The notes under the pieces were generated by a model. The model did no database searches and had not been told where the DNA came from. It worked only from the letters and a program-made list of their open reading frames with translations. The position numbers and the translations under genes were made by a program. From an uncultured Anaerolineales bacterium (GTDB lineage: Bacteria > Chloroflexota > Anaerolineae > B4-G1 > SLSP01), in the NCBI GenBank assembly GCA_964496595.1, contig CAZCAI010000002.1, positions 3,782 to 67,781 on the forward strand: 64,000 nucleotides of DNA. Reading direction: 5' to 3'. Positions within the stretch are counted from its first letter, which is position 1. Each line of letters opens with the position of its first letter. Of the stretch, positions 37,989-55,515 are shown in pieces.

Positions 37989-38360
37989 TCAGAGCAAGTC
38001 AGTAAGTGAGTCAACCGCCCGGCGCATCTCCAGGAAAACCAAACCCAACTTAGCTTTGGAATGCGCCAAGGCCGTTAAAACCGCCTCCTGTCCAACCGAC
38101 ATCAAAATCACATATCCCTGGTCGCCTTTGACATAAACCTGTTCCAAATTGCCGCGCCCCAGTTCAATCGCAATGCGCTCACCCAGGGAGAGCATCGCAG
38201 CGGACATAGCGGAAACGCGGTCTTCTTCGGAACCAGAGGGAAGGGCCGAGGCAATAATCAGGCCGTCCACGCTAACAATGGCGGAGGCTTCGATGTCTGG
38301 CGTACCAACTTGAAGGTCACGCAGCGCTGTGGTCAGTTGATCAACACGTGATGCGGGCAT
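37989..38360 (-). CDS. Roadblock/LC7 domain protein (MglB-like)
   Basis: ASAIVSVDGLIIASALP, DRVSAMSAAMLSLGERIAIELGRGNLEQVYVKG, KLGLVFLEM. Confidence 0.92.
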   Translation of the reverse strand: MPASRVDQLTTALRDLQVGTPDIEASAIVSVDGLIIASALPSGSEEDRVSAMSAAMLSLGERIAIELGRGNLEQVYVKGDQGYVILMSVGQEAVLTALAHSKAKLGLVFLEMRRAVDSLTDLL

Positions 38361-38464
38361 AAATCCTCCTTAGATCGAGCAGGAATTTTATAAACATTGT
38401 TAAGAAAAAATCTCCCCAAAAAACGAGTCGAATTGGGGAAATGATGATGTAATTTTACCTTCCT

Positions 38465-38611
38465 GGTTCTTTAGGAATTCGCCGAGGGGCAATCGTATCA
38501 TCCCATCCACAACCTGCTAACACGCAAACAGGTCTGTGATCCTTGCAAACACACGAATCGTGGCTGCTGTTAGGGCTACTGGGGGAATTATCCGGCAAAA
38601 TTCAAAAGGCC
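38465..38611 (+). mobile_element. ISL3-type miniature inverted-repeat element, copy A (147 bp)
   Basis: Ends GGTTCTTTAGGAATTCGCCG and CCGGCAAAATTCAAAAGGCC; perfect 8-bp direct repeat ACCTTCCT at 38457-38464 and 38612-38619. Confidence 0.8.
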
Positions 38612-38784
38612 ACCTTCCTCAGATTGTATTGAAGAGGGTATTGACTGCCCTTAATAGTACCATACTTGCAAGGGGGTGTCAATTTGACAGCGAGCTTTTT
38701 AATTTTACAATCAAGGGGACGCGCCAGAGAGATCAACACGCCTCACCAACCCCACAATGTCAAAAATTGACCAAGGAGTCTAAC

Positions 38785-39516
38785 GTGGATCAGATCAGCG
38801 ATAAAGCCGCCTCACGAGGGAATCCTTCCTTTGTATGGCGCGCAGGACAAGAGCGGCGATTTCAGTTAGTTCGCCAGCACATCGATCTCCACGGCAAGGC
38901 GATTTTGGATGTGGGATGTGGCGTGGGGATGTACACCAACGCCTTCTCCCGGCACTCGCCCCACGTCTACGGCGTCGAGATCGAGGGCGAGCGCGCTCAG
39001 GAAGCCCGCGACCGCGCGCGCGCCGTGATGCAAGCCGTGGGCGAGGCGCTTCCCTTCGCCAGCCACGCCTTCGACGTGACCTTCTCCCACGAGGTGCTGG
39101 AGCACGTCGCCGATGACCGGCGCTGCGCCCGCGAGATGGTCCGCGTCACCCGGCCCGGCGGAAACATCGTGATCTTCGTGCCCAATCGGCTCTACCTCTT
39201 CGAGACGCACGGCATCTACTGGCGCGGACGTTATCACTTCGGCAACAAGCCGCTGGTCAACTGGCTGCCCGATCCCCTGCGCGACCGCCTCGCCCCCCAC
39301 GTCCGCGCGTACACCGCCGCCGACCTGCGCCGCCTGTTCCGCGATCTGCCCGTGCGCGTGCGCGTCCACACCCAGATCTACCCCGGCTACGATAATATCG
39401 TCGCGCGACGCCCGCGGCTGGGCCAACTGCTGCGCCGGCTGACCTATGAGATGGAGCGCACACCGCTGCGGCATTTTGGGCTGTCCCATTTCCTCGTGTT
39501 GGATGTGCTCAAGTGA
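38785..39516 (+). CDS. Class I SAM-dependent methyltransferase
   Basis: ILDVGCGVG, ALPFASHAFDV, EVLEHV, VTRPGG; AAGGAG RBS before GTG 38785 (the ORF-track start 38536 lies inside MITE A). Confidence 0.88.
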   Translation: MDQISDKAASRGNPSFVWRAGQERRFQLVRQHIDLHGKAILDVGCGVGMYTNAFSRHSPHVYGVEIEGERAQEARDRARAVMQAVGEALPFASHAFDVTFSHEVLEHVADDRRCAREMVRVTRPGGNIVIFVPNRLYLFETHGIYWRGRYHFGNKPLVNWLPDPLRDRLAPHVRAYTAADLRRLFRDLPVRVRVHTQIYPGYDNIVARRPRLGQLLRRLTYEMERTPLRHFGLSHFLVLDVLK

Positions 39517-39539
39517 AAAACTTCTCACGCACCCTTTAG

Positions 39540-39614
39540 GTCTAACTTCCGAACAACCTCTAAGGTTTTTTGAGGAACGAGCAAAAATTTGGTGACGGCT
39601 CGTCCAAGTTAGGG
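39540..39614 (+). repeat. Divergent 75-bp member of the ~80-bp dispersed repeat
   Basis: GTCTAACTT...GGTGACGGCTCGTCCAAGTTAGGG; 3' end matches copy 35239-35320. Confidence 0.55.
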
Positions 39615-39632
39615 CCACGAGAAACATCTTTT

Positions 39633-39667
39633 AACTTGCAACTTGCAACTTGCAACCTATAACTCAT
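39633..39667. repeat. Heptamer tandem repeat (AACTTGC)3 plus two degenerate units
   Basis: Direct reading upstream of the purB RBS. Confidence 0.7.
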
Positions 39668-39684
39668 TTTTTCAGGAGATACCC

Positions 39685-41097
39685 ATGCCTGATCCCTATG
39701 TCTCACCCTTTACGTGGCGCTACGGCTCCGAGGCGATGCGCGAGATCTGGAGCGAGCGCACTAAGCGCCGCTGGTGGCGTCGCATCTGGGTCGCGCTGGC
39801 CCGCGTACAATCGCGCTTCGGGGCGGTGACCGAGGCGCAGGCGGCCGATCTCGCCGCGCATCAAGATGAGGTCGATTTGGCGCGCTCCTTAGAGATCGAG
39901 GCGGAGATCCACCACGACCTGATGGCCGAGGTGCGCGCCTACGCCGCGCAATGCCCCGTCGGCGGCGGGATCATCCACGCGGGCGCCACCTCGATGGATG
40001 TGAAGGACAACGCGACGATCTTACAGATGCAGCGCGCCTTGGATTTGATCATCGAGCAATTAGCAGAGCTGCTCGCCGCCTTCGCTGATCAGATCCACCG
40101 CTGGGCCGATACGCCCTGCATGGGCTTCACCCACCTCCAGCCCGCCGAGCCGACCACCGTCGGCTATCGCCTGGCCGGCTACGCCCAGGATTTTCTAGAG
40201 GATCACCGGGCGCTGACGCGCCTGCGAGAAGAGCTGCGCGGCAAGGGCTTCAAGGGCGCGGTGGGGACCTCGGCCTCGTACGCGATGCTGCTGCCGGACG
40301 AGGTGACGCCCGCCGAATTCGAGCGCGCGGTGATGGACGAGTTGAGCCTGCGGACGTGGGCGGTCGCCAACCAGACCTACCCCCGCCGGCAGGATTGGGC
40401 CGTGCTCTCCGCACTGGCCGGGCTGGGCAGCGCGGCCTATCGCTTCGCGCTCGACCTGCGCCTGCTCCAGAATCCCACCATCGGTGAGTGGTCGGAGCCG
40501 TTTGGCAGCCGCCAGGTCGGCTCCTCGGCGATGCCGTTCAAGCGCAATCCCATCCGCGCGGAGAAGATCGATAGCCTGGCACGCTATCTGGCGCAACTGC
40601 CGCGCGTCGCCTGGGATAACGCGGCCCACTCCGCGCTGGAGCGCACGTTAGATGATTCGGCCAATCGGCGCGTGATTTTGCCCCAAGCGTTCCTCGTCGC
40701 CGACGAGGTGTTGCGCGTGACGATCCAATTAGTAAGCGACCTGCGGGTCGACGAGCGCGCTATCCAACACACCTTGGAAACCTACGGCCCTTTCGCCGCC
40801 ATCGAGCCGCTGCTGATGCGCCTGCTGCAGGCCGGCGCCGACCGCCAGGCGATGCACGAGACGTTGCGCGCGATCGCGATGCAGGCGTGGGAGGAGATCG
40901 AGGCCGGGAAGCCCAACCCGCTGCCGGAGCTACTCGCCGCCGCGCCGGAGATCACGGCGCACCTCCCGCCGGAGCAGATCCGCGCCGCGTTAGACGCGCA
41001 CGCCTATGTCGGGGACGCGCCCCAGCGCGCTCGGACATTGGCGGCTCACATCCAATCACATCTTGCCAAAACGGAAGCCCTCCAAGACAACTTATGA
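39685..41097 (+). CDS. purB: Adenylosuccinate lyase
   Basis: YVSPFTWRYGS, HDLMA, GATSMDVKDN, GFTHLQPAEPTT, signature GSSAMPFKRNP, ERTLDDSANRR. Confidence 0.92.
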   Translation: MPDPYVSPFTWRYGSEAMREIWSERTKRRWWRRIWVALARVQSRFGAVTEAQAADLAAHQDEVDLARSLEIEAEIHHDLMAEVRAYAAQCPVGGGIIHAGATSMDVKDNATILQMQRALDLIIEQLAELLAAFADQIHRWADTPCMGFTHLQPAEPTTVGYRLAGYAQDFLEDHRALTRLREELRGKGFKGAVGTSASYAMLLPDEVTPAEFERAVMDELSLRTWAVANQTYPRRQDWAVLSALAGLGSAAYRFALDLRLLQNPTIGEWSEPFGSRQVGSSAMPFKRNPIRAEKIDSLARYLAQLPRVAWDNAAHSALERTLDDSANRRVILPQAFLVADEVLRVTIQLVSDLRVDERAIQHTLETYGPFAAIEPLLMRLLQAGADRQAMHETLRAIAMQAWEEIEAGKPNPLPELLAAAPEITAHLPPEQIRAALDAHAYVGDAPQRARTLAAHIQSHLAKTEALQDNL

Positions 41098-41203
41098 TCC
41101 GGCCTTGGATGACACGATCCCAACGCCTATCGAGAGGGCGGGGGCAGCGGGGTCTGCCTCTGCACCACACTTTTCGAAGCGCCCTACTGTGAGGACTTCG
41201 ACT

Positions 41204-42304
41204 TTGAACATCCTGCTGATCGCGCCCTATTTCGGCGGCAGCCATCGCGCTTGGGCGGGGGGCTACGCCCGGCACAGCCGCCATCGCGTCGAGGTGCTAC
41301 GCCTACCCGCGCGCTTCTGGAAGTGGCGGATGCAGGGCGGCGCGGTCACGTTGGCCGCACGCGCGCGCAAACTTTCTACCAAACCGGATCTACTGTTGAC
41401 CACGGATATGCTCAACCTACCCGCCTTCTTGGGCCTGAGCCGCGATAGGCTAAGCGATGTGCCGGTAGCGCTCTACTGCCACGAAAATCAACTCACCTAC
41501 CCGATGCCGCCCGGCGAGAAGCGCGATCTCACCTACGCCATGATCAACTGGCTTTCGATGTTGGCGGCGGATCGGGTCTTCTTCAATTCCGCGTATCATC
41601 GGGCAGATTGGTTCAAGGCGCTGCCGCGCTTCCTCAAGCACTTCCATGATTTCAAGCACGTGCATCGGATTGCGGCGGTGGAGGCCAAGTCCGCCGTCCT
41701 GCCCGTCGGCTGCGACCTGGCGCGCCTGGATCGCGCCCGGCCCGAGACCTACCCCAACGCCGCCGGCCCACCCATCATCCTGTGGAATCAACGGTGGGAG
41801 TACGACAAAGCGCCCGCCGTCTTCTTCCGCGCGCTGGACGCCTTAGTCGCCGAGGGGATCGAGTTTCGCGTTGCGCTGGCGGGCAGCAACGTCCGCCAGC
41901 AGCCGGAGGAGTTCGAGGCGACGCAGGAGCGCCTGGGCGCGCGGGTGATCCACTACGGGCGCGCCGACGCGGCAGATTACGCGCAGCTCCTCTGGGCTTC
42001 GGACATCGTCGTCAGCACCGCGCGCCACGAATTCTTCGGCATCGCCGTGGTGGAGGCGATGTCCGCCGGCTGCTTCCCCGTACTGCCGCATCGCCTGGTC
42101 TATCCAGAGCTTGTGCCGCCCGCGCATCACGCCCGCTGTCTCTACGCGAATTTCGAGGAGTTGGTCTCTCGCCTGCGATGGGCCATCCACGAGGTCGCAG
42201 CGGCGCGCGCCCTCGCCTCCGAGCTGCGGACCTCGATGGCAAAATTCGATTGGGCTACGATGGCGCCGCGCTACGATGACACCTTCGAGACTGTGCCTGG
42301 ATAG
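41204..42304 (+). CDS. DUF3524 GT-B glycosyltransferase (GTDC1/QTMAN-like)
   Basis: YFGGSH, LPARFWKWRMQG, YCHENQLTYP, NSAYH, LWNQRWEYDK, STARHEFFGIAVVEA; TTG start 41204. Confidence 0.85.
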   Translation: MNILLIAPYFGGSHRAWAGGYARHSRHRVEVLRLPARFWKWRMQGGAVTLAARARKLSTKPDLLLTTDMLNLPAFLGLSRDRLSDVPVALYCHENQLTYPMPPGEKRDLTYAMINWLSMLAADRVFFNSAYHRADWFKALPRFLKHFHDFKHVHRIAAVEAKSAVLPVGCDLARLDRARPETYPNAAGPPIILWNQRWEYDKAPAVFFRALDALVAEGIEFRVALAGSNVRQQPEEFEATQERLGARVIHYGRADAADYAQLLWASDIVVSTARHEFFGIAVVEAMSAGCFPVLPHRLVYPELVPPAHHARCLYANFEELVSRLRWAIHEVAAARALASELRTSMAKFDWATMAPRYDDTFETVPG

Positions 42305-42330
42305 TTGAATCCAAGAAAGCAAACGAAGTC

Positions 42331-42491
42331 GGGTCTTTTGGATTTTGCCGGGCAATCTCCTCAGTAGCCCTAAAAGCAGCCAAGAATTGCGTGTTTGTGG
42401 GGATTACAGACCTTTCTTGCGTCGCTCCTGGGTTGCAGGTGGGGGGCGCAATAGCGCTTGACGATTGCACCCGACGAATTCCTGAAGAGCC
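42331..42491 (-). mobile_element. ISL3-type miniature element, copy B (161 bp)
   Basis: Imperfect IRs GGGTCTTTTGGATTTTGCCGG / GGCTCTTCAGGAATTCGTCGG (15/21); perfect 8-bp direct repeat ACGAAGTC at 42323-42330 and 42492-42499. Confidence 0.85.
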
Positions 42492-42750
42492 ACGAAGTCA
42501 AAGTTGATGTGCGGGACAGCGCAGCTTCGTGGAGCTTGTCCCCTGGGAACTGCTTCATTTATACCTTCATACCTTCTTCTAATCTCTCTTCGATAACTTG
42601 ATTTTTCCGCAAGCCATTCTATACTACCATCTCAGTGCGAGTGAATCCAAGCGATATATCTCCATCAGCTTATGGTAATCATGCAAATCGTGACGGGAGT
42701 AAGCGCCTGATATGTGGATGGTTAAACTTGTCAATCGCCCAGGATAGGAC

Positions 42751-43425
42751 ATGAGAAAAGCAACACTTTTGGCTCTGGCGGGGATTTTCATTGTCGGTGT
42801 GCTCGTAGGGTTTCTGGCTACAGCAACGTTACCCGATCTGGCCTTAGTCAATCTCTATCAACAGTGGGGCTTTTTGGGCCTGATCGGGCGCGTGGCCATC
42901 GCCCTGATGCTGTTGGGAATTCCCCTTACTTATACCGCGTGGATCATTGGTGGTATCGTTCAGATATCGCGACCCCACCAGCCTACGGAAAATGAGAGAT
43001 TATCGGAGCTTCCAGAAGGACAAGGAGAGTATCAGCATGTTCTGGTGCCTGCCGGTGGAGGGCCACATGCTTTGCTGGGCCTCCGACTGGCGACAAAACT
43101 CACCAACGGCACGGCCAAACACGTCACTTTGTTTCGCGTCATTCCTCCCGCTTCAGAATCAGAGATTTCTGATCAACAATACCGACTACAACAGATAGTT
43201 GAAAAGAATCTCGGGCCAGAGTACAAAATTGATATTCGTGTGCGCGTCAATGATTCAGTCATCCATGCTATTCGCGATGAAGTTCGCACCGGGGACTATG
43301 ATCTTCTCGTCATAGGCGCCTCGAATCGTTCCACCATTGCATCGCTGCTATTTGGCACGATCCCAGATGTGTTGGGTGAACAGATCACTTGCCCAATCCT
43401 GGTCGTGCGCGCGGGGACGTCATGA
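42751..43425 (+). CDS. Membrane protein with C-terminal universal stress protein (USP) domain
   Basis: Two to three N-terminal hydrophobic segments; HVLVPAGGGPHA, DLLVIGAS, LFGTIPD, CPILVVR. Confidence 0.8.
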   Translation: MRKATLLALAGIFIVGVLVGFLATATLPDLALVNLYQQWGFLGLIGRVAIALMLLGIPLTYTAWIIGGIVQISRPHQPTENERLSELPEGQGEYQHVLVPAGGGPHALLGLRLATKLTNGTAKHVTLFRVIPPASESEISDQQYRLQQIVEKNLGPEYKIDIRVRVNDSVIHAIRDEVRTGDYDLLVIGASNRSTIASLLFGTIPDVLGEQITCPILVVRAGTS

Positions 43426-43587
43426 CCTGGCTGGCATCTCTTATCTTTTTTATTTGGCCAGTCTCTCCTGATCACAACGATGAAAGCCAGCGGGGGTTCG
43501 CTGTGTAGGCAGGAAATGTGCAACAGTAGAACTGCATGTTTTACCTCGCTAAACTATCGCTCATAGTATTCTGCGAAAGGAGAAATT

Positions 43588-45408
43588 TTGACACTAGAAC
43601 AGGGCCTTGTCTATGCCGTCATTGTGCTGACACTGACGATGCTTGCGCTGCAGATCTGGCGCTATGATATGGTGGCGCTTATCGGTATGTTGTTGCTTGA
43701 GTTTATAGGGGCGGTCTCTGTCGAGGAAGCTCTGGGTGGGTACGGCCATTCCGCCATCGTGACCATCGCGGTGGTGCTGGTTGTCAGTCGCGGTCTGCAG
43801 AACACGGGCGTGGCCGATATGTTTGTTAAGTGGATGTCGGTTGCCGGGAAACGTCTAGCTGCGCAACTGGCTATGCTGTGCACCCTGGTGGTCCTCAGCT
43901 CCGCCTTTATGAACAATCTCGCGGCCCTGGCTCTCTTTATTCCGGTGGCTGTGCGGATCGCCAGAAAAAACAATCACGCTACCTCACTGTATTTGCTGCC
44001 GATGGCATTCAGTTCTCACTTTGGGGGTCTGATCACACTCATCGGAACGCCGGAAAACCTGATCGTCTCCGCGCTGCGGGTTGAGCACGGCGGGGAACAC
44101 TTTGACATGTTCGCGTTCGCCCCGGTGGGGATTGCGATCTCGGTGGTGGGGGTCGCGTTCATCACATTCCTTGGCTGGCGCCTCATTCCAAAGCGCGAGG
44201 GTGAGACGTCAGCGCAGGATAGCGTTCAGAACGTGGACTTTGTGACAGAAGTGCAAGTTCCCCCTGAGTCTGCATTAACCGGCCAGAAGTTGCGTAATCT
44301 GAAGTCACTCACCGATGCCGATCTGTGGGTCGTTGCCATTATACGCGATGGGAAACGTATCTCCTCACCCAAGGGAAACGATAAAATACGGGCGGGTGAC
44401 ATCCTTCTGGTGCGCGCCGAAGCCGCGGCCCTGCGGCAGTTCGCCTACGATACGGCCGTTGTATATCCGGAGTGCAAGCCACTTGAGTGCCCGAAGGAGA
44501 ACGGCCGCGAGCGCACCGATGGCTGGGAGCAACTCAAGGCCAGCCTGCACGCTGACGATGTTGAGATTGCCGAAGTCATCGTTGCTCCAGGCTCGATGAC
44601 CATAGGGAAGACTGCGCGTGACCTTAATCTGCGCGCGCGTTACGGCATCAATCTCCTGGCCATATCGCGGGCTGACGAAAACTTGCACTCTTCTGTGGGA
44701 ACAACCCCCCTGAAATCCAGTGATGTGCTACTGGTGCAAGCACATCATGAAGAAATGGCAGAAACACTGAAGACGCTGGGATTCATACCGTTGACGCAAC
44801 AAGAAATTCACCTGCAGCCACACAACACAGTCCTGGGATTGGCTATCTTCCTGGCCGCACTTCTCAGCGCAAGTTTTGGAATCCTATCGGTGCCCATCGC
44901 AATGACCGCGGCCGCTATCGCAATGGTGATCACGGGGCTTGTATCCTTGCACGAAGCCTACCAGAGCGTCGAGTGGCCGATCATTGTGCTGCTGGGCGCG
45001 ATGTTGTCGATGGGAGCCGCCCTGCAAAACACCGGCGGGGATCAATTCATCGCCGATCAGATTTTGCGGGCCGCCGGTTTTCTCTCGCCCCCCATGCTCC
45101 TGATCGTCGTCCTGCTGGTAACGATGATTCTTTCCGACATCGTGAACAACGCGGCCGCCGTTGTGCTGATGGGATCGATCGCGATCAGCGTAGCGCAGGG
45201 CCTGGGCGTCTCGACCGATCCGTTTCTCGTGGCCGTTGCGGTGGGCGGTTCCTGCGCCTTTCTGACGCCCATTGGTCATGAAGCGAATGTCCTGGTTTTT
45301 GAGGCCGGTGGGTACGAGTTCGGTGACTACTGGCGGCTGGGTCTACCGCTCGAACTGCTGATTACAGCCGTCACCATCCCCGTTTTGCTTTGGGTCTGGC
45401 CGCTCTAA
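43588..45408 (+). CDS. SLC13/CitMHS-type permease with two TrkA-C (RCK_C) domains
   Basis: WRYDMVALI, SAFMNNLA, TLIGTPENL, SDIVNNAAA, FLTPIGHEAN, YEFGDYWRLG; TTG start with AAAGGAG. Confidence 0.9.
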   Translation: MTLEQGLVYAVIVLTLTMLALQIWRYDMVALIGMLLLEFIGAVSVEEALGGYGHSAIVTIAVVLVVSRGLQNTGVADMFVKWMSVAGKRLAAQLAMLCTLVVLSSAFMNNLAALALFIPVAVRIARKNNHATSLYLLPMAFSSHFGGLITLIGTPENLIVSALRVEHGGEHFDMFAFAPVGIAISVVGVAFITFLGWRLIPKREGETSAQDSVQNVDFVTEVQVPPESALTGQKLRNLKSLTDADLWVVAIIRDGKRISSPKGNDKIRAGDILLVRAEAAALRQFAYDTAVVYPECKPLECPKENGRERTDGWEQLKASLHADDVEIAEVIVAPGSMTIGKTARDLNLRARYGINLLAISRADENLHSSVGTTPLKSSDVLLVQAHHEEMAETLKTLGFIPLTQQEIHLQPHNTVLGLAIFLAALLSASFGILSVPIAMTAAAIAMVITGLVSLHEAYQSVEWPIIVLLGAMLSMGAALQNTGGDQFIADQILRAAGFLSPPMLLIVVLLVTMILSDIVNNAAAVVLMGSIAISVAQGLGVSTDPFLVAVAVGGSCAFLTPIGHEANVLVFEAGGYEFGDYWRLGLPLELLITAVTIPVLLWVWPL

Positions 45409-45525
45409 TCATGCGGGCGCTACTGAAAATATATACTTACGCCTGATGTTGTATAAATGATCAAAGTGAGTTATAGTACAGTTTGATTTTAGAGAGAACA
45501 GGAGAATAAGAGAACAGAGGAAGTT

Positions 45526-46233
45526 ATGGAAGATACTTACGCAAATGATCATGAGGAGGACGATAGTATCGCTGACGAGCCGCTAGAAATACGCCCAGAT
45601 TTGGCGCCTCAGGGACGGCGTTGGTACAAACTTCCGCCTTCGTTGAGGGCGCGGCTTCGACAGGGGCATGAATACATCGAGATCTCGGGAGTTGCCGAGA
45701 TTGCGCGGCGGGCATTTGGGAAAAACGCCTTCGATGGAGTGTTGACTATGATGGGGGTGGTGATGGGCAGCTTTGTGGTGGGGATAGAAGACCCTGCCGT
45801 CATCATCATCTCCGGCATCTCAACCTCTGTGGCCCTGGGCATCTCCGGCGGATGGGGCGCTCAACTCTCCGAGTCGGCTGAACGGCGCCTTGATATCATT
45901 AAACTCGAAAAAATAATGTTGACTCCGCTGACCGAGACAAAGATCGGCCATGCATCTCGTATGGCCGTGTGGGTCGTCACCGCTGTAGATGGTCTGTCTC
46001 CCTTCCTCTCGGCTTTCTTCGTTGTCATACCTTTCTTTTTAACGCCACTCTTACCCACTATTGACTATGCTTATTATGCCTCGATGGGCATGGCCCTTGT
46101 CACCCTCTTCGTGCTGGGCATCTACTTAGCCTACGTCGGTCATGAAGATAAGGTAAAGTTTGGTATTAAGACGATGATCGCCGGTATCGTCGCGATCATT
46201 GTCAGTTTTAGCCTTGAGCTATTGACACCGTAG
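45526..46233 (+). CDS. VIT1/CCC1-like membrane protein (TIGR00267-type), paralogue 1
   Basis: IARRAFGKNAFDGVLT, GAQLSESAERR, DGLSPF; acidic N-terminal extension. Confidence 0.75.
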   Translation: MEDTYANDHEEDDSIADEPLEIRPDLAPQGRRWYKLPPSLRARLRQGHEYIEISGVAEIARRAFGKNAFDGVLTMMGVVMGSFVVGIEDPAVIIISGISTSVALGISGGWGAQLSESAERRLDIIKLEKIMLTPLTETKIGHASRMAVWVVTAVDGLSPFLSAFFVVIPFFLTPLLPTIDYAYYASMGMALVTLFVLGIYLAYVGHEDKVKFGIKTMIAGIVAIIVSFSLELLTP

Positions 46234-46342
46234 AGGCGTCGCGAGGACTTTACTTTGGCATGGATCTCATTGGCGCTTAATTGTGGCTTAATCGGAGACG
46301 CTGAACCGGAGATATTTATACGTAGCGTAAAAAGGGTCAGAG

Positions 46343-46945
46343 ATGAAACATTTCTTCATTAGAAGGTTTAAGATATGGCGTGAATACATCAAGATCTCAG
46401 GGGCCGGAGAGATTGCGCGGCGCGCATTTGTGAATAACTCATTCGATGGGGTGCTGACCATGGTAGGGGTAGTGATGGGAAGCTTCGTGGCCGGCATTAA
46501 GGATCCCAACGCGGTATTCATCACCGGTCTATCGACGGCGTTCGCGGTTGGAATTTCCGGTTTGTGGGGATCCTACCTTATCGAGGCAGCCGAGCAACGT
46601 CACGCGATAGTTGTCCTGGAAAAGCAACTTATGAGGCCGCTTAATAAGACGAGAATCGACCGCGCGGGCCATGTTGCCGTGTGGTACGTCTCCATTGTTA
46701 ACGGAGTATCGCCTTTCCTTGCCGCTTTGATTATCATCATACCTTTTCTTCTTGTCCCGCTCTTGTCCCACATTGACTATGCCTATTACACGTCCCTTGT
46801 GCTGGCGCTGATATCCCTCTTTGGCCTCGGCGTCTACCTGGCTCAAATTTCTCACGCGAGCAAGTTCCGGTTTGGCATCAGGGCTATGATCGCCGGTATT
46901 ATCTCGATTGCGGTTGGCTTCGGCATCGAGTTGGTCACCTCGTAG
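46343..46945 (+). CDS. VIT1/CCC1-like membrane protein (TIGR00267-type), paralogue 2
   Basis: IARRAFVNNSFDGVLT, GSYLIEAAEQR, NGVSPF; same fold as the preceding gene. Confidence 0.75.
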   Translation: MKHFFIRRFKIWREYIKISGAGEIARRAFVNNSFDGVLTMVGVVMGSFVAGIKDPNAVFITGLSTAFAVGISGLWGSYLIEAAEQRHAIVVLEKQLMRPLNKTRIDRAGHVAVWYVSIVNGVSPFLAALIIIIPFLLVPLLSHIDYAYYTSLVLALISLFGLGVYLAQISHASKFRFGIRAMIAGIISIAVGFGIELVTS

Positions 46946-47055
46946 GCGGAGCGCTGATAGCGTGATTCGGTTTTCAATTCTCCGGCTACATAGTTTGTAT
47001 AGAGTTCGTCTTACTCATAGAATGACAGTAGCGTTCATCTGATAAATGTTATTTT

Positions 47056-47343
47056 GGCTCTTCAGGAATTCGCCGGGTGCAATCGCACCCATACCCCCCC
47101 CGCGACCTCGTAACAACGCAGAAAAAGTCTGTGGGTTCCACAAACACACAAATCTTCGCTATTTTTAGGGCGACTGAGCGAGCTATCCGGCAAAATCGTT
47201 ACCGTCACAAAGTCTTCGCCACCTGGCCCCCTGGCTCCGAGGGGATTGCTAATCCCCGCCTAACCGCCGGATTTAGCAATCCGGCGAGAGCCTGGCACGA
47301 CATGGCGAATACTTTGAGATACAAGCCAAAATCCAAAAGTTCC
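47056..47343 (+). mobile_element. ISL3-type miniature element, copy C (288 bp including nested insertion; 152 bp without)
   Basis: Starts GGCTCTTCAGGAATTCGCCGG, ends CAAAATCCAAAAGTTCC; perfect 8-bp direct repeat GTTATTTT at 47048-47055 and 47344-47351. Confidence 0.85.
47198..47326. mobile_element. Second MITE (129 bp) nested inside the terminal IR of copy C
   Basis: 7-bp duplication CAAAATC (47191-47197, 47327-47333); 24-bp imperfect IRs GTTACCGTCACAAAGTCTTCGCCA / GCTTGTATCTCAAAGTATTCGCCA; internal REP-like hairpins. Confidence 0.75.
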
Positions 47344-47435
47344 GTTATTTTTAACAAGGTTACCTCGCTGTTTATGGAGTAGTAGCCTCAGTTCCGTCAT
47401 ATAATCCAAATATAATCAAAAAGGAGAAACAAGTT

Positions 47436-50207
47436 ATGAGTGCATGGCATACAATGACACGCGAGCATGCCCTGGAGAAGCTCAACGCCGTTCCCGAGGG
47501 GCTATCCTCAGATGAAGTTGAGGAGCGTTTGGCCCAGTATGGGTCTAACGAACTGGAGGAACGAGGATTACGCAGCCCGTGGAAGGTGCTGATAGGACAA
47601 TTTACAGAGATCATGGTCGTGGTGCTGCTTATTGCCGCGGGGATTTCCCTGGCTATGAGCCATACCACTGATGCGATTGTGATCCTCATCATCGTGATCC
47701 TCAATGCAATCCTCGGCTTCACGCAGGAGTACCGCGCCGAGCGGGCGATGGCCGCGCTTAAGGAGATGTCAGTTCCCACAGTTCGGGTCCGCCGCGATGG
47801 GCAGATTCGGGAGGTCGAGGCTACCAGCCTCGTGCCGGGGGACATTATTCTGCTGGAAGCCGGGGACCGGATCCCCGCCGACGCTCGCGTTATCGAGTCG
47901 GTTAACTTACGAATCGAGGAAGCGGCGCTGACCGGAGAATCCGTGCCGGTAAGCAAATCGGAGGCTCCGTTTGAGGACGAAGGCCTACCTCTCGGAGATC
48001 GCCGCAATATGGTCTTTATGGGCACGGCCGTTACCTATGGGCGCGGCACTGCGCTCGTCGTCGAGACGGGCATGGAGACAGAGCTGGGCAACATCGCCGA
48101 CATGCTCCAACAGGTCTCGGAGGAGCGGACGCCACTGCAACGCAAGATGGCAGAGCTGGGCAAATGGCTGGCGATTGCTTCCATCGTTTTAGTCAGCATC
48201 GTCTTTGCCGTCGGCGTCTGGCAGGGCGGCAGCATCGGCGAAATGTTCCTGACCGCCGTCAGTCTCGCCGTGGCCGCAGTTCCAGAAGGCCTACCGGCGG
48301 TAGTTACCATCGCTCTGGCTCTGGGCGCGCAGCGTATGGTCAGGCGTCAAGCCCTCATTCGCAAGCTGCCCGCTGTGGAGACCTTAGGCTCAGTAACGAC
48401 CATCTGTTCAGATAAGACGGGCACGCTGACCGAAAACCGCATGACGGTGACGGTTCTGGATGTGGCGGGGAAGACTCTGAATCTCACCACCCATCTGAAG
48501 CACACCGGTGCGACCCTCTCACCTGACGACGAGCCGATTGTCGAACCTGATCCCCAGATCGCCCTGTTGTTGGCCGGCGGCGCGATGTGTAACGATGCCA
48601 GTCTTGAACCTGTGGATGACAAACCCAACGCTTACGAAGCCCTGGGCGACCCCACAGAAGGGGCAATCGTCGTCGCCGCAGCCCGATTGGGAATGTGGAA
48701 GGCCGAGATGGAAAAGCTTATGCCGCGGGTCGCCGAGGTGCCCTTCACCTCAGAGCGCAAGCGAATGACGACGGTCCATCGCGCACCCCAGACATCCGAA
48801 CTCTCCGGTAACAGTCAATTGAGCTACCTGCCGGCAGACATCCCGAAGAGCGGCTATGTACTCTTCACCAAGGGCGCGGTCGACCAGATGCTGGGTATTT
48901 GCGACCGCGTCTGGAACGAAGGGGAGATCGAGCCATTGGACGAGACGTGGCGCTCCCGCATCGAGCAGGCTAACAATGAATTGGCCCAGGACGGGATGCG
49001 CGTCTTAGGCGTGACAATGCGCCACCTGGACGAGGCGCCTGATCAAGCTGATGAAGAGGCCATCGAGGCTGAGGAAATATTCATTGGTCTTATCGGCATG
49101 ATCGATCCCCCACGTTCCGAGGTGCGCGACGCGGTGGCTGAATGCCGCACCGCCGGCATCCGCCCGGTGATGATCACTGGCGATCATCCCCTAACGGCGC
49201 TCCATATCGCCCGCGATTTGGGCATCGTCCAGGCCGGTGAAGAGGACGATCACCACGTAATCACAGGCAAACAACTGGCCAAGATGTCAGTCGCAGATTT
49301 GGAGGAACACGTCCGCGAGATTTCAGTCTATGCCCGCGTCAGCCCGGAGCACAAGGTCAAGATCGTGGAAGCCTTGAAGGATCAAGGCGAAATCGTAGCG
49401 ATGACCGGGGATGGGGTCAACGACGCCCCGGCCCTCAAGCGCGCCGACATCGGCGTCGCGATGGGCATCACGGGCACGGACGTGAGCAAAGAGGCCGCTG
49501 ATATGGTGCTGTTAGACGACAATTTCGCGACCATCGTCCATGCCGTTGAAGAGGGGCGCACCATCTACGAGAACATCCGCAAGTTCGTCAAGTACACGAT
49601 GTCCAGCAACATCGGAGAGATTCTGGTGATGCTGGTGGCGCCGTTGGCCGGTCTCCCCATCCCGCTGAATGCGATCCAAATCCTGTGGATCAACCTGGTG
49701 ACCGACGGCTTGCCGGGTCTGGCGCTAAGTGTAGAGCCTGCTGCGCCTGATACGATGCAACGCCCCCCGCACGCGCCCAACGAAAGCGTGCTGGCGCGCG
49801 GGCTGGGAACGTACATGTTATGGGTAGGGCCTCTGATGGGCCTCGTTGCCCTCCTTCCCGAGTTCTTAGCGGCGGCGGGCTTGGGTGGCATGACGCTAGA
49901 AGGCGAAGCGTTCCATACGGTGGTCTTTACGACGCTGGCGCTGGCGCAGATGGGGAATGCCTTAGCCATCCGCTCCGACCGCCTCATGCTGATGCAACTT
50001 GGCCTCTTTACGAACCCCTTCCTGCTAGGCTCCGTAGCCCTGACCTTCCTGCTGCAAATGGCCGTCGTCTATGTGCCCTTCCTGCAGAACATCTTCGATA
50101 CTGTCCCCCTCAGCTTGGAGCAACTCTTAATCAGCCTGGGCTTCAGCACTATCGTCTTCATCGTTGTTGAAGTGGTGAAGTGGATCCGGCAGCAGATCGA
50201 AAAGTGA
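47436..50207 (+). CDS. Cation-transporting P-type ATPase, P2A (Ca2+/Mn2+, PacL/YoaB-like)
   Basis: [64 protein letters not shown]. Confidence 0.95.
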
Positions 50208-50294
50208 GCGCCGTCTACGACGAACCGTTGAGTCCCAGCCGCCAGAGCTCCAATCCCGGCGGCTGGACTCAACCGACGTACTTGAGATGGCGTC
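50208..50294. other. Extended stem-loop in the ATPase-permease spacer
   Basis: Inner stem TTGAGTC(C)CAGCCGCC/GGCGGCTGGACTCAA inside outer GCGCCGTCT/AGATGGCGT. Confidence 0.5.
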
Positions 50295-50337
50295 AAGGTC
50301 GCGCGTTTTGTGGAGAGTTACTTGTGTTTAAGGAAAT

Positions 50338-52698
50338 ATGATGAATATGATGAACGAACGTCATTTAAGGCGTGAACTCAATCTCCCTCAGGTGCTTATG
50401 TTGGGCACAGCGGGCACGATTGCCGCAGAGATCTTTGTCCTCACCGGCCACGCGGCCGGAAAGGCCGGGCCTGCCAGCGTGCTCGTCCTGCTCTTAGTAG
50501 GTCTGTTGAGTAGCGCCTTTGCCCTGAACTACGCGGAACTGGCCACCACGTATCCCGTGGCAGGAGGGGCGCTCACCTACGTGCGTCGAGCCTACGGCAA
50601 CGGATTGCGCGCCTTTCTCGTAGGCTCGATGGACAGCCTGTCCAGCGCCTTCTACGCGGCGCTCTCTGCCGTGGGTTTCGCTTACTCACTGAGAATCTTT
50701 TTGCCCTTTATCCCTATCGTTCCGACAGCGCTGATGGTCGTGCTGGCTTTCACGATATTGCATCTGTTTGGCGTGAGCAACGTAGGCCGTGCGCAGATGA
50801 TCCTGGGCGGTATCTTGCTCACACTGCTAGGAATCTACGTGGTAGCCGGGCTGATACTGCCCCATGGTTTCAGCTGGGAGCGGTTTGCGCCGGGGGGTGA
50901 GGTTTTCGTCTACGACGGTATCGGCGCCAATATTGCGATGATGTTGGGCACCATGGCCCTTATCTTTAACGCCTTCGTTGGCTTTGAACTCATCGCCGAC
51001 GACGCCGAGGAGGTGTCGAATCCTTCCCGCAATATACCCATCGCACTATTGGGCAGTCTGGCTGTCATCACGCTCATTTACACCGTGGTTACGCTGGTTA
51101 CCCTGGGCACAGTACCGTGGCAGGAGCTGGCGGGCTCGGAGGCAGCCCTGACCCAAGCCGTCACGCGATTCCTACCAGGTGTCGGCCCGGTACTCATCGG
51201 CATCGCCGGCATCATCGCCACTCTGACGAGCATCAATACGGCGATGTTGAGCGCCACACGTGAGGCAATGACCTTGAGCCGGCTGGGACTGTGGCCCAAA
51301 GCTATGGCGCGTCTGGGCCGGCTGCGCACCCCTTACGTCGCCATCCTCCTCATCGGCGCCGTGGTCGGTCTTGTGTCGGCCTTAGGGGTGGTCACTTTAC
51401 TGGGCTACATCTCCAGTTCGGGCTATCTGTTCGTTATGTTTTGGTCCGGTTTGGCCATGGTTCGGCTCCGTCGGCTGGAGCCGGATGTCGAGCGCCCTTT
51501 CCATGCGCCTCTTTTTCCGATCACGGCCTACGTTCAGGTCGGTACCTGCGTCGTGGTCATTGCCTTTACTGCGCCGCAAGCGCTCGCCTTTGGCGGCGCC
51601 GTGCTCCTTATCCTCACTGCCATCTACTATATGCGGCGGCCCCTTGCGGCCGCCGCGAGCGGGCGCACCGCGGCGGCGGAGCGAGCCCGCGATCGTCTGT
51701 TGGTGGCTGTAGCTAACCCCAGCACGGCGGACAGCCTGGCGCGTCTCGCAGCCAATCTTTCGGAGGAACAAGCCGGCAGTCTCATGGAGATTCTGGCCGT
51801 CGCCCCGATGAATGGGCAGAATTGTGCCCCAGGCGCCTTGGAACGCGAGTGCACTCAAACTCAAAGGGCCCTGCTGAGCCAGGTAGCCAAGGCAATGGCG
51901 GATCGCAATGTGCCCTTCTACACCGAGGTCCGCACAGCGGACGACGTGGTCGGCGGCATCCTCGAAGAGATCAGTTATCGTGACGACATCCGGCTCCTGC
52001 TGATGGGATGGCCGGGGCGACTGGACCTTGCGGCGCAGCAGGAACACCCTGTCGCGCGCTTGCTGAGGGAGTGCCCTGTGGATATGGCTGTCTATCTCAA
52101 CCGCAGCATCGTCGAGCACCCCCGGCGCGTGCTGGTGCCTTTTGGCGGCGGCGTCCATGCCCGCCTGGCGCTGAGACTCGCCGCTCAGTTGGTCGCGCCG
52201 CAGGGAGGTGAAGTAGTAGCGCTTCGCTTCCTCGAGACGCTCGCAGGGGAGATCCCTGTGGAAGAGGCGGTGATCGAGGGCAACGAGATGGTGGACGTGG
52301 TTGGCGAGGGATTGCCAGATGGCGACGATGAGCTGCATGACGAGTTGATGTTGGCTTACGAGGAGATCGAGGCCGGTCTCGGTTACGTGCCCGACAACGT
52401 GAGCGTGAAGGTTGTGGTTGACACAGACATCGCTCAAGGCACACGGGAGGAGTTGATGACAGGGGATTATGACCTGGTCGTCATCGGGGCGGCCCTGGCC
52501 TACGCCATGGAATCGGATCTGTTTGGCTCGTTGCCCACAGCGGTGGCGGAGTCGGCGCCCACCTCGGTACTCTTGGTACGGCGGTACGAACCGGAACCGG
52601 TGACCTGGATGCGGCGGCATGTCAAGGAAATCGTTGAGACCCACCGGAAAACCAATCGTGATACGGAGACGTTTGTAAACACAAAGCTAGCTACCTGA
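50338..52698 (+). CDS. APC-family permease fused to tandem USP domains, paralogue 1
   Basis: GTAGTIAAEIF, YAELATTYPVAGGA, FVGFELIADDAEEV, ATREA, VERPFHAP; C-terminal LLVAVANP, RVLVPFGGGVHA, TSVLLVR. Confidence 0.88.
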   Translation: MMNMMNERHLRRELNLPQVLMLGTAGTIAAEIFVLTGHAAGKAGPASVLVLLLVGLLSSAFALNYAELATTYPVAGGALTYVRRAYGNGLRAFLVGSMDSLSSAFYAALSAVGFAYSLRIFLPFIPIVPTALMVVLAFTILHLFGVSNVGRAQMILGGILLTLLGIYVVAGLILPHGFSWERFAPGGEVFVYDGIGANIAMMLGTMALIFNAFVGFELIADDAEEVSNPSRNIPIALLGSLAVITLIYTVVTLVTLGTVPWQELAGSEAALTQAVTRFLPGVGPVLIGIAGIIATLTSINTAMLSATREAMTLSRLGLWPKAMARLGRLRTPYVAILLIGAVVGLVSALGVVTLLGYISSSGYLFVMFWSGLAMVRLRRLEPDVERPFHAPLFPITAYVQVGTCVVVIAFTAPQALAFGGAVLLILTAIYYMRRPLAAAASGRTAAAERARDRLLVAVANPSTADSLARLAANLSEEQAGSLMEILAVAPMNGQNCAPGALERECTQTQRALLSQVAKAMADRNVPFYTEVRTADDVVGGILEEISYRDDIRLLLMGWPGRLDLAAQQEHPVARLLRECPVDMAVYLNRSIVEHPRRVLVPFGGGVHARLALRLAAQLVAPQGGEVVALRFLETLAGEIPVEEAVIEGNEMVDVVGEGLPDGDDELHDELMLAYEEIEAGLGYVPDNVSVKVVVDTDIAQGTREELMTGDYDLVVIGAALAYAMESDLFGSLPTAVAESAPTSVLLVRRYEPEPVTWMRRHVKEIVETHRKTNRDTETFVNTKLAT

Positions 52699-52712
52699 CA
52701 CTTTCATATCTA

Positions 52713-52812
52713 AACCTCCCGCAGGCTTGGATTTGCCTCGTGATAAGCATGATGGGTACTTTTAGAGGCTTTTTTCGGTCAATTGTGCTCAACCTTCAAC
52801 CTGCGGGAGGTT
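52713..52812. repeat. REP-like inverted doublet AACCTCCCGCAGGCT / AACCTGCGGGAGGTT
   Basis: Near reverse-complement pair about 70 bp apart between the two APC paralogues. Confidence 0.55.
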
Positions 52813-52855
52813 GGCAAACTGTCGGGTGGCTAGAACACAAAGGAGACTTAACTTA

Positions 52856-55153: not shown

Positions 55154-55354
55154 TCACAAGACAAAAGCCGCCTAAAACAGAGCCGTCTAAATAAGTAGAC
55201 GCGCGATTGGGAAGACGGAAAGCCTTAACAAATCCACCAACTTTTCCACGCTGGCGACCTTTGATGTGCTCAAAAGCTGATCGCGGAGCTGCACAAAGCC
55301 ATCGTGCAGCGGATAGACTGAATAATGTAGAAACCACTCGCATTCGAGCCTATC

Positions 55355-55390
55355 AACGGGTGATGCCGCTACCGGTATCACCCGTTTTTT
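55355..55390 (+). terminator. Intrinsic terminator
   Basis: AACGGGTGATGCCG-CTAC-CGGTATCACCCGTT-TTTT. Confidence 0.75.
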
Positions 55391-55515
55391 CGACTCGCAT
55401 CACGACGCTGGTTGCCAGGCGAGGTTGTCTATTTGAGCAAGAAGTTATACACTGGGATCAAGTTGAAAGCCCACGCGCCCTTACAAATAAAAACCCACAA
55501 GGAATTAGAGAAACT

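Follow-up and report, generated by a model that had tools for sequence, protein, structure and literature searches.

Three short elements lying within 9 kb of one another in the window (the whole 64,000-nucleotide stretch of DNA analysed) are most probably, at a rough probability of 0.85, copies of a non-autonomous MITE family that descends from an insertion sequence of the ISL3 family. The host is a 5.0-Mb Chloroflexota (Anaerolineales) MAG, labelled G000, which is 88% complete and has a GC content of 60%. The elements belong to a family with many dispersed copies in this genome, they are flanked by 8-bp direct duplications, one of their insertion sites is empty in related species and their ends resemble those of ISL3 elements from sister genera. 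The family is limited to one uncultured Anaerolineales genus, in which it had already split into subfamilies and was mobile after the four sampled species diverged.

The coordinates and exact 8-bp flanking duplications given for all three elements in the preliminary description, which was made from the window alone, were reproduced to the base. Copy 1 (147 bp, plus strand) occupies positions 38465–38611, between the 8-mer ACCTTCCT at 38457–38464 and the same 8-mer at 38612–38619. Copy 2 (161 bp, minus strand), a member of the young 161-bp subfamily, occupies positions 42331–42491 and is flanked by ACGAAGTC at 42323–42330 and 42492–42499, while copy 3 (288 bp, plus strand) occupies positions 47056–47343, with GTTATTTT at 47048–47055 and 47344–47351. 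The three copies can be aligned over their whole length through conserved termini and one internal block, and this three-way alignment contains the end motifs, together with the internal blocks GTCTGT, CAAACAC and TTAGGGC.ACTG, that had been reported as common to them. Among the full copies, copy 1 has diverged furthest (its identity is 76% with the consensus and 78% with its nearest relative); copy 2 and its nearest relative (C19:14940-15102) are 97% identical. The length of copy 3 results from an unrelated 129-bp element of a second MITE family, B, which sits inside its right end (47198–47326, plus strand) and interrupts its right inverted repeat. Copy 3 thus consists of a 152-bp body, the nested element and the 7-bp duplication of the latter, CAAAATC, found at 47191–47197 and 47327–47333. 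Family B has at least 22 near-full copies genome-wide with 91–96% identity, each with a 7-bp duplication of its own.

A genome-wide search, proposed with the preliminary description and here carried out with an nhmmer profile, found 139 copies of the main family dispersed over more than 100 contigs; 74 copies are full length (150 or 161 bp). Left ends with no more than three mismatches number 97 in the genome, and the family amounts to ∼0.4% of the assembly. From the 139-copy count, 0.25 copies are expected per 8.9-kb interval (Poisson P ≃ 0.002 for three or more); since the genome comprises ∼565 such intervals, the clustering of three copies in 9 kb is not significant by itself. The consensus element is ∼150 bp in length, with a 161-bp variant, lacks an ORF and is bounded by imperfect terminal inverted repeats (GGCTCTTCAGGAATTCGCCGGGTG... 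and ...CCGGCAAAATCCAAAAGACCC). The left end is identical to the reverse-complemented right end at 17 of 24 bases. Per-column conservation across the 74 full-length copies is highest at positions 1–30, 131–150 and 61–90, the termini being the most conserved columns of the family alignment.

The flanking 8-mers match at seven or more positions in 49 of 73 scorable copies (8/8 in 37 copies, or 38 with the boundary of copy 1 shifted by one base, and 7/8 in 12), compared with none of 219 offset controls. The duplication is exactly 8 bp long, with the ninth base agreeing only at the chance rate, and the target sites are AT-rich and asymmetric (consensus A-T-A-A-T-C-Y-T) despite the GC content of the genome. 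Approximately 18 copies are pairwise 98–100% identical and each has a different perfect duplication, although identities of 100% between copies may be slightly inflated if the short-read assembler homogenized repeats. Across the genome, the integrity of the duplications drops as the divergence of the copies rises. Stop-free stretches of 200 or more codons contain only 7% of the insertion sites, as against 82% of random sites. Classical bacterial MITEs such as Correia, RUP and Nezha are likewise small elements bounded by terminal inverted repeats, amplified in trans and mostly intergenic, but they stem from other IS families and have other duplication lengths.

The intergenic location could also reflect a structured repeat selected by the host (REP/BIME-like, or a small-RNA or terminator cassette) instead of a transposon, and on the minus strand the conserved internal block does form a hairpin with a T-run behind it, which was flagged as terminator-like in copy 3. 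This explanation is scarcely credible, being contradicted by the fixed 8-bp duplications and the clean empty sites. Moreover, the fold energies of the elements are no better than those of shuffled sequences (z ≃ 0), no Rfam match was obtained and the internal hairpin displays no compensatory changes, and an RNA gene or riboswitch was rejected on these grounds. A sequence scan found no outward σ70-like promoters within the MITEs. The identification as a MITE stands on small size, the lack of coding capacity, terminal inverted repeats, a fixed duplication length, ∼140 dispersed copies and empty sites in sister species.

The connection with ISL3 comes from a comparison with elements from sister genera belonging to the same Anaerolineales family, which contain Zn_ribbon_ISL3, HTH_Tnp_ISL3 and DDE_Tnp_ISL3 domains (Pfam E values of 1e-60 to 1e-68; PF01610 in the elements compared, plus PF14690 and PF13542 where tested). 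The insertion sequences L093 (from genome G462), L012 (G028), L003 (G006) and L005 (G032) are 1.27–1.44 kb long, autonomous or degenerate, and encode a transposase of 430–500 amino acids, whereas the MITE is non-coding. The elements end in GG[C/G/T]TCT[T/C]..GGA.TT sequences, and their terminal 24 bases are identical to the MITE ends at 15–21 positions, at both ends of L093, L012, L003, L005 and L004 and at one end of L006. Both MITE ends match to this degree in all the fully bounded ISL3 elements from the bacterial family. Random 24-mers agree at 6.3 positions on average and reach 15 in 0.016% of cases, and the similarity is comparable to that between the two ends of the MITE itself. One end of L093, CGGCGAAATCCAAAAGAGCC, is a single base away from the sequence with which many MITE copies end on the right, and L012 is flanked by a perfect 8-bp duplication, GAAATGAG. 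Significant resemblance is restricted to the terminal 24–30 bases: a 56-nt local alignment was obtained between the MITE and the end of L093, which without the terminal 24 nt is no better than alignments to shuffled sequences (p ≃ 0.24), and the subterminal part does not rise above shuffled controls. All of these insertion sequences lie outside the MITE's own genus. Many MITE-like ends also occur in G032; their origin as simple deletion derivatives of the IS in that genome was rejected because the left end of this IS recurs only three times.

A published pair provides a close parallel. In Microcystis, a 187-nt MITE and ISL3 elements share inverted terminal repeats starting with GGCTCTTCG and generate 8-nt direct repeats (PMC11448079). 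The M. aeruginosa MITE, which ISL3-family transposases mobilize, resembles the present family in being non-coding, in having terminal repeats that begin with GGCTCTTC, in its 8-nt repeats, in its many copies and in its restriction to one genus (PMC11448079). It differs in host phylum (Cyanobacteria versus Chloroflexota), in length (187 versus 150/161 bp) and in internal sequence, and its ISL3 partner with matching ends is found in the same genome (PMC11448079), whereas none was found in the Anaerolineales MAG. An ISL3-derived MITE (ISMac21) is also listed for Methanosarcina acetivorans; it too is short and non-autonomous and has been attributed to an ISL3 partner, but is archaeal, 179 bp in length and present in only six copies with 7-bp direct repeats (PMC3852290). 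The ISL3 label attached to the elements at the outset is thus well supported at the level of sequence by the similarity of the ends, the duplication of L012 and the Microcystis pair, although the cognate transposase has not been found. Conceivably, the family is a genuine MITE that originated from and was mobilized by another IS family that duplicates 8 bp (e.g. IS1595, IS256, ISAs1 or IS66), with the likeness to ISL3 being convergent. The missing cognate transposase in the genus and the lack of significant similarity beyond the terminal repeat speak for such an origin. We consider it improbable, however, given the agreement of both ends with every fully bounded ISL3 element of the bacterial family, the publication of the GGCTCTTC start together with 8-bp repeats for ISL3 (PMC11448079) and the failure to find a long element of any family with these ends.

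The ISL3 transposase with matching ends that the preliminary description suggested looking for was not found in G000 or in three congeners (G001, G002 and G003). Neither the DDE domain (PF01610) nor a fragment of it was detected in G000 or in the three congeners, all four of which are incomplete MAGs, and no long element with the family ends was found in them. In the host genome, tblastn with six ISL3 transposases gave nothing below E = 0.4, left and right family ends paired at distances of up to 6 kb enclosed no element of coding size and a self-megablast of the assembly revealed no multi-copy IS-like repeat of any family. In 61 relatives, and in the complete set of 71 genomes from the bacterial family, ISL3 elements were confined to other genera. 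An exact 28-mer from the family end, searched in 185,579 species representatives, occurred only in three congeneric MAGs, in every case in MITEs; it had no matches in JGI metagenome contigs, where a 20-mer gave 22 chance matches within coding sequence. The family end was also absent from viral contigs, from a plasmid collection and from 400 genomes across the class. The missing partner is weak evidence because the assembly is an 88%-complete MAG. IS copies are expected to drop out of such data, since the four MAGs of the genus are 69–88% complete and 24 of the 658 contig ends in G000 stop within the MITE repeat. As the MAGs are incomplete and derived from short reads, an unassembled or unbinned IS copy is the most likely source of the transposase.

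In the proposed mechanism, an ISL3-type DDE transposase, possibly still present and provided in trans, would bind both ends of an element, excise it and insert it with an 8-bp stagger, preferably at AT-rich sites; repair of the resulting gaps would give rise to the 8-bp direct repeats. An unlikely alternative is that the family is active in four species that truly lack a chromosomal ISL3 transposase. The driver would then be carried by a phage, a separate replicon or a co-resident organism, or the elements would be cross-mobilized by a transposase with different native ends, and at some loci, such as that of copy 1, the conserved internal hairpin and T-run may have been co-opted to act as portable terminators or leaders.

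Comparison with the three congeneric species, another of the checks suggested initially, provides evidence for the timing of transposition. The site of copy 1 is empty in all three, with one related 8-mer in each and flanks that are 85–91% identical; for copies 2 and 3, no orthologous site in these genomes could be aligned. The congeners contain 64–154 MITE candidates each, and all 35 congener copies inspected were short MITEs, most with their own duplications. Several resolvable congener loci are empty in G000 and none of those resolved is filled, so that species-specific insertions occur reciprocally among species with 10–15% divergence in the flanks. The empty site 1, the congener insertions missing from G000 and the subfamily of 98–100% identical copies indicate that transposition went on after speciation.

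These observations also bear on the proposal that the copies are fossils, i.e. immobile relics left behind after the genus lost their ISL3 partner, with duplications that have not yet decayed. Such a history would fit the missing transposase in four MAGs, the fall in duplication integrity with divergence, as expected for ageing relics, and the right repeat of copy 3, broken by another element. It is nonetheless unlikely in view of the ∼18 nearly identical copies with distinct perfect duplications and the reciprocal species-specific insertions, and the dropout of IS copies expected from these assemblies could itself account for the missing enzyme. An ISL3-derived MITE family that kept moving after speciation is the reading that we prefer. 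The earlier suggestion that an already diversified family was mobilized recently in trans holds for copy 1, which has only 78% identity to its nearest relative yet occupies a site that is empty in three congeners, and for copy 2, a young-subfamily member that shares 97% identity with its nearest relative. Elsewhere in the genome, most divergence reflects age, since the integrity of the duplications falls with copy divergence.

Copy 1 is located in a divergent intergenic region, with a Roadblock/LC7 gene (37989–38360, minus strand) on one side and a methyltransferase gene on the other, and lies between a conserved promoter-like site (38654–38682, minus strand) and the LC7 gene. A GTG 'start' at 38536 of the methyltransferase ORF falls within the element. 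Copy 2 lies 27 bp past the stop codon of a QTMAN_N/GT4 glycosyltransferase gene and 260 bp ahead of a Usp gene, at the left edge of a segment of ∼13.2 kb (about 42305–55490, plus strand, limits approximate) that is missing at this locus in G002 and G003. Copy 3 lies 111 bp past a VIT1 gene and 93 bp ahead of a P-type ATPase gene. The transport cluster in this region is the species-specific 13.2-kb segment, which contains genes for Usp, a CitMHS/TrkA_C transporter, two VIT1 proteins, the P-type ATPase and two amino-acid permease-Usp proteins and has a GC content of 50–61% compared with 63–67% in the flanks; no repeat was found at its right junction. A reading of copies 2 and 3 as the ends of a composite transposon with the four intervening genes was rejected: each is framed by a matching duplication of its own, and the segment runs well past copy 3 to the right junction without a repeat. 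The locations upstream of genes and at or within the transport cluster, to which attention had been drawn, are correct; they carry no signal because the family is almost wholly intergenic. Effects of the copies on neighbouring genes may nevertheless occur.

The elements represent a well documented, ordinary kind of mobile DNA and reveal no new mechanism, as MITEs that stem from ISL3 and share the end motif and the duplication length have already been published. Their description is of value for annotation and delimits a repeat family of high copy number in an uncultured genus of the Anaerolineales. Since it terminates contig ends, the family fragments short-read assemblies, and its copies can yield false ORF starts, such as the GTG codon in copy 1. 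The insertions serve as species-specific markers, and the results show ISL3-type MITEs to be widespread in the order.

Rereading of the sequence gave exact agreement with the coordinates and octamers of the preliminary description: copy 1 (38465-38611, plus strand) is flanked on both sides by ACCTTCCT, copy 2 (42331-42491, minus strand) by ACGAAGTC and copy 3 (47056-47343, plus strand) by GTTATTTT. The common termini and internal blocks described for these MITEs are present in a MAFFT alignment, with GG[C/T]TCTT[C/T]AGGAATTCG... at the left and ...CCGGCAAAAT[C/T]CAAAAG..CC at the right. The extra length of copy 3 comes from a different, 129-bp element nested in its right terminal repeat and bounded by a 7-bp duplication of its own, CAAAATC (47191-47333 with duplications). 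This element belongs to an unrelated MITE family, family B (129-130 bp, imperfect ~20-bp terminal repeats, 7-bp target duplications), with at least 22 near-full copies of 91-96% identity genome-wide (e.g. C86:9211-9339 and C6:36509-36638). Copy 3 is older than the nested insertion; with its right repeat interrupted in this way, it is probably immobile.

A genome-wide BLAST search, proposed as a check of the repeat family, found 72 near-full-length copies in the MAG (5.03 Mb, 329 contigs, 60% GC, 88% complete); an nhmmer profile gave a total of 139, including 74 full-length copies (150 or 161 bp). The window occupies C2:3782-67781 of this assembly. Flanking octamers are identical at 8/8 positions in 37 of 73 scorable full copies (38 with the copy 1 boundary shifted by one base) and at 7/8 in a further 12, and none of 219 offset controls reaches 7/8. 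As the ninth flanking base matches at the chance rate only, the duplication length is exactly 8 bp. The target sequence is AT-rich (8-34% GC at positions 1-5) and asymmetric relative to element orientation, with consensus A-T-A-A-T-C-Y-T. The family is genus-restricted: three congeners, each a different species, carry 64-154 candidate copies each, a sister genus (n = 1) shows faint similarity to the right half only and no similarity was found in 55 other relatives. Among 185,579 species genomes, the exact 28-nt left end is confined to three MAGs (Anaerolineales bacterium binchicken_co8_377, Chloroflexi bacterium GSL.Bin35 and Anaerolineales bacterium D1M03_10), and a sample of 400 genomes from across the class does not contain it. 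Since 24 of the 658 contig ends of the assembly stop inside a copy (e.g. C4:35-54, C36:74-93, C102:73-92 and C139:12812-12831), the family contributes measurably to its fragmentation.

The most conserved parts of the element are positions 1-30, positions 131-150 and an internal block, GAAAAAGGTCTGTGATCCCCACAAACAC, at positions 61-90. On the minus strand this block could fold into a 7-bp hairpin with a T-run after it, a feature marked as resembling a terminator in copy 3. As variation breaks the hairpin pairs and does not compensate them, folds of the whole element do not exceed shuffled sequences in stability and an Rfam search gave no match, there is no evidence of an RNA function.

End sequence and duplication length both give good support to the ISL3 assignment originally proposed, with the cognate enzyme not among the assembled genes. 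Of 71 genomes from the same bacterial family, 12 have ISL3 transposase genes, none of them from the genus itself. Sister-genus ISL3 elements with both ends assembled span 1.27-1.44 kb, and their ORFs carry Zn_ribbon_ISL3, HTH_Tnp_ISL3 and DDE_Tnp_ISL3 domains. Their ends are GGCTCTCTGGTAGTTCGCAGG... and GGCTCTTTGGGATTTCGCAGGGT... in L012 (genome G028), GGTTCTTTGGGAATTCCCGTGGTG and GGCTCTTTGGGAATTGGCGTGGTA in L003 (G006), GGCTCTTTCGGAATTCACGGGGTA and GGGTCTCTAGGAATTCACGGGGTA in L005 (G032), and GGCTCTTTTGGATTTCGCCGGGTA and GGGTCTCTGGGATTTCGCCGGGAA in L093 (G462). The MITE ends share 15-21 of 24 bases with these, compared with an average of 6.3 for random genomic 24-mers; this match is as good as that between the MITE's own left and right ends (17/24). 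One L093 end, CGGCGAAATCCAAAAGAGCC, is a single base off the right end of many MITE copies, and L012 has a perfect 8-bp duplication around it. In Microcystis, ISL3 elements and their associated 187-nt MITE are reported to have the same ITR start, GGCTCTTCG, and 8-nt direct repeats (PMC11448079) as the MITE described here, and another ISL3-derived MITE is on record for M. acetivorans (PMC3852290). Ends of the form GGCTCTT..GGA.TTCGC..GGT, 20-70 per genome and in inverted pairs ~115-130 bp apart, were also seen in seven relatives from other genera of the same family or order (G005, G006, G018, G027, G032, G041 and G043); these look like sister ISL3-type MITE families, and no ISL3 transposase was shown in G005, G018, G027 or G043.

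None of the sister-genus elements is likely to be the parent, since significant similarity stops at the terminal repeat. A search for an ISL3 transposase with the same ends found none in the assembly or the genus (MAGs 69-88% complete). The MAG contains no ISL3 DDE domain, no trace in tblastn with ISL3 transposases and no assembled multi-copy IS of any kind, and paired family ends enclose nothing larger than a nested MITE. Species-genome contigs bearing the exact 28-nt left end contained only MITEs, JGI metagenomes gave no matches and then chance matches only, and viral contigs and plasmids yielded no parent element. Failure to find the enzyme in four short-read MAGs, 69-88% complete, is weak evidence that it is truly absent.

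The suggested comparison with sister genomes bears on the age of the insertions. The site of copy 1 is uninterrupted in all three congeners, with a single related octamer (...CGTAATGCTCCCTTCGT|TAGGAAG... in G002) where our genome has octamer-MITE-octamer. Conversely, several congener loci whose flanks are both collinear in our genome are empty there, and no resolvable congener locus has a filled counterpart; other loci have flanks on different contigs, which fits the 24/658 contig ends that stop in the repeat. About 18 copies of a 150-bp subfamily are 98-100% pairwise identical, each with a different perfect duplication. Together with the species-specific insertions, this indicates transposition after species divergence, in part very recent. 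Perfect duplications flank 22 of the 29 copies that have a nearest neighbour at ≥95% identity versus 4 of 18 below 85% (5 of 18 after the copy 1 boundary correction), and most copy divergence is therefore post-insertion ageing. The earlier idea that an already diversified family was mobilised recently holds for copy 1: although no copy in any of the four genomes is more than 78% identical to it, it retains a perfect duplication at a site that is empty in congeners whose flanking DNA is 85-91% identical. Copy 1 is thus an exception to the ageing pattern, and its source must have diverged before insertion. The idea also holds for copy 2, which is 97% identical to its nearest relative and young.

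Pfam assignments give the gene order urocanase and Roadblock/LC7 (both minus strand), copy 1, SAM methyltransferase, lyase (Lyase_1/ADSL_C), QTMAN_N/GT4 glycosyltransferase, copy 2, Usp, CitMHS/TrkA_C transporter, two VIT1 genes, copy 3, P-type ATPase, two amino-acid permease-Usp fusions and CAAX protease. In two congeners (G002 and G003) the CAAX-protease gene directly follows the glycosyltransferase gene, so that the entire transport cluster, 13.2 kb at ~42305-55490, is specific to our genome at this locus. GC content of the segment is 50-61%, below the 63-67% of its flanks, and its right junction showed no integrase, tRNA or repeat. Two copies do lie at or within the transport cluster, copy 2 at the left edge of the segment and copy 3 inside. 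Movement of the segment by the MITEs as a composite transposon is rejected, since every copy is bounded by a matching duplication of its own. At its 3' end the glycosyltransferase gene has an imperfect tandem 14-nt repeat (GCTACGATGGCGCC / GCTACGATGACACC, 42254-42283). That all three copies lie upstream of genes is true but carries no signal: only 7% of reconstructed insertion sites fall in stop-free stretches of at least 200 codons, versus 82% of random positions, and such placement is expected.

No sigma-70-like promoters were found inside the three copies. Just right of copy 1, at 38654-38711, is a divergent pair of strong sigma-70-like matches (plus strand, TTGACA-16-TACAAT; minus strand, TTGACA-17-TACTAT with TG) within a stretch that is conserved across the three congeners; from these predicted promoters, copy 1 may lie in the leader of the LC7 gene. 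At ~38395-38400, between 'aaacattg' and 'ttaagaaaaa', the congeners have an extra intergenic segment of ~55-115 bp, including a GC-rich hairpin-like sequence, that is absent from our genome, an indel unrelated to the MITE. The longest methyltransferase ORF (38536-39516) starts at a GTG inside copy 1; the gene must in fact start downstream of 38619, and automatic annotation could over-extend it into the MITE.

The MITE observation is thus confirmed and its interpretation supported, with the cognate transposase not found. The genus-specific family is new, and ISL3-derived MITEs as a kind are already described. The family reveals no new mechanism; its value lies in annotation and assembly.
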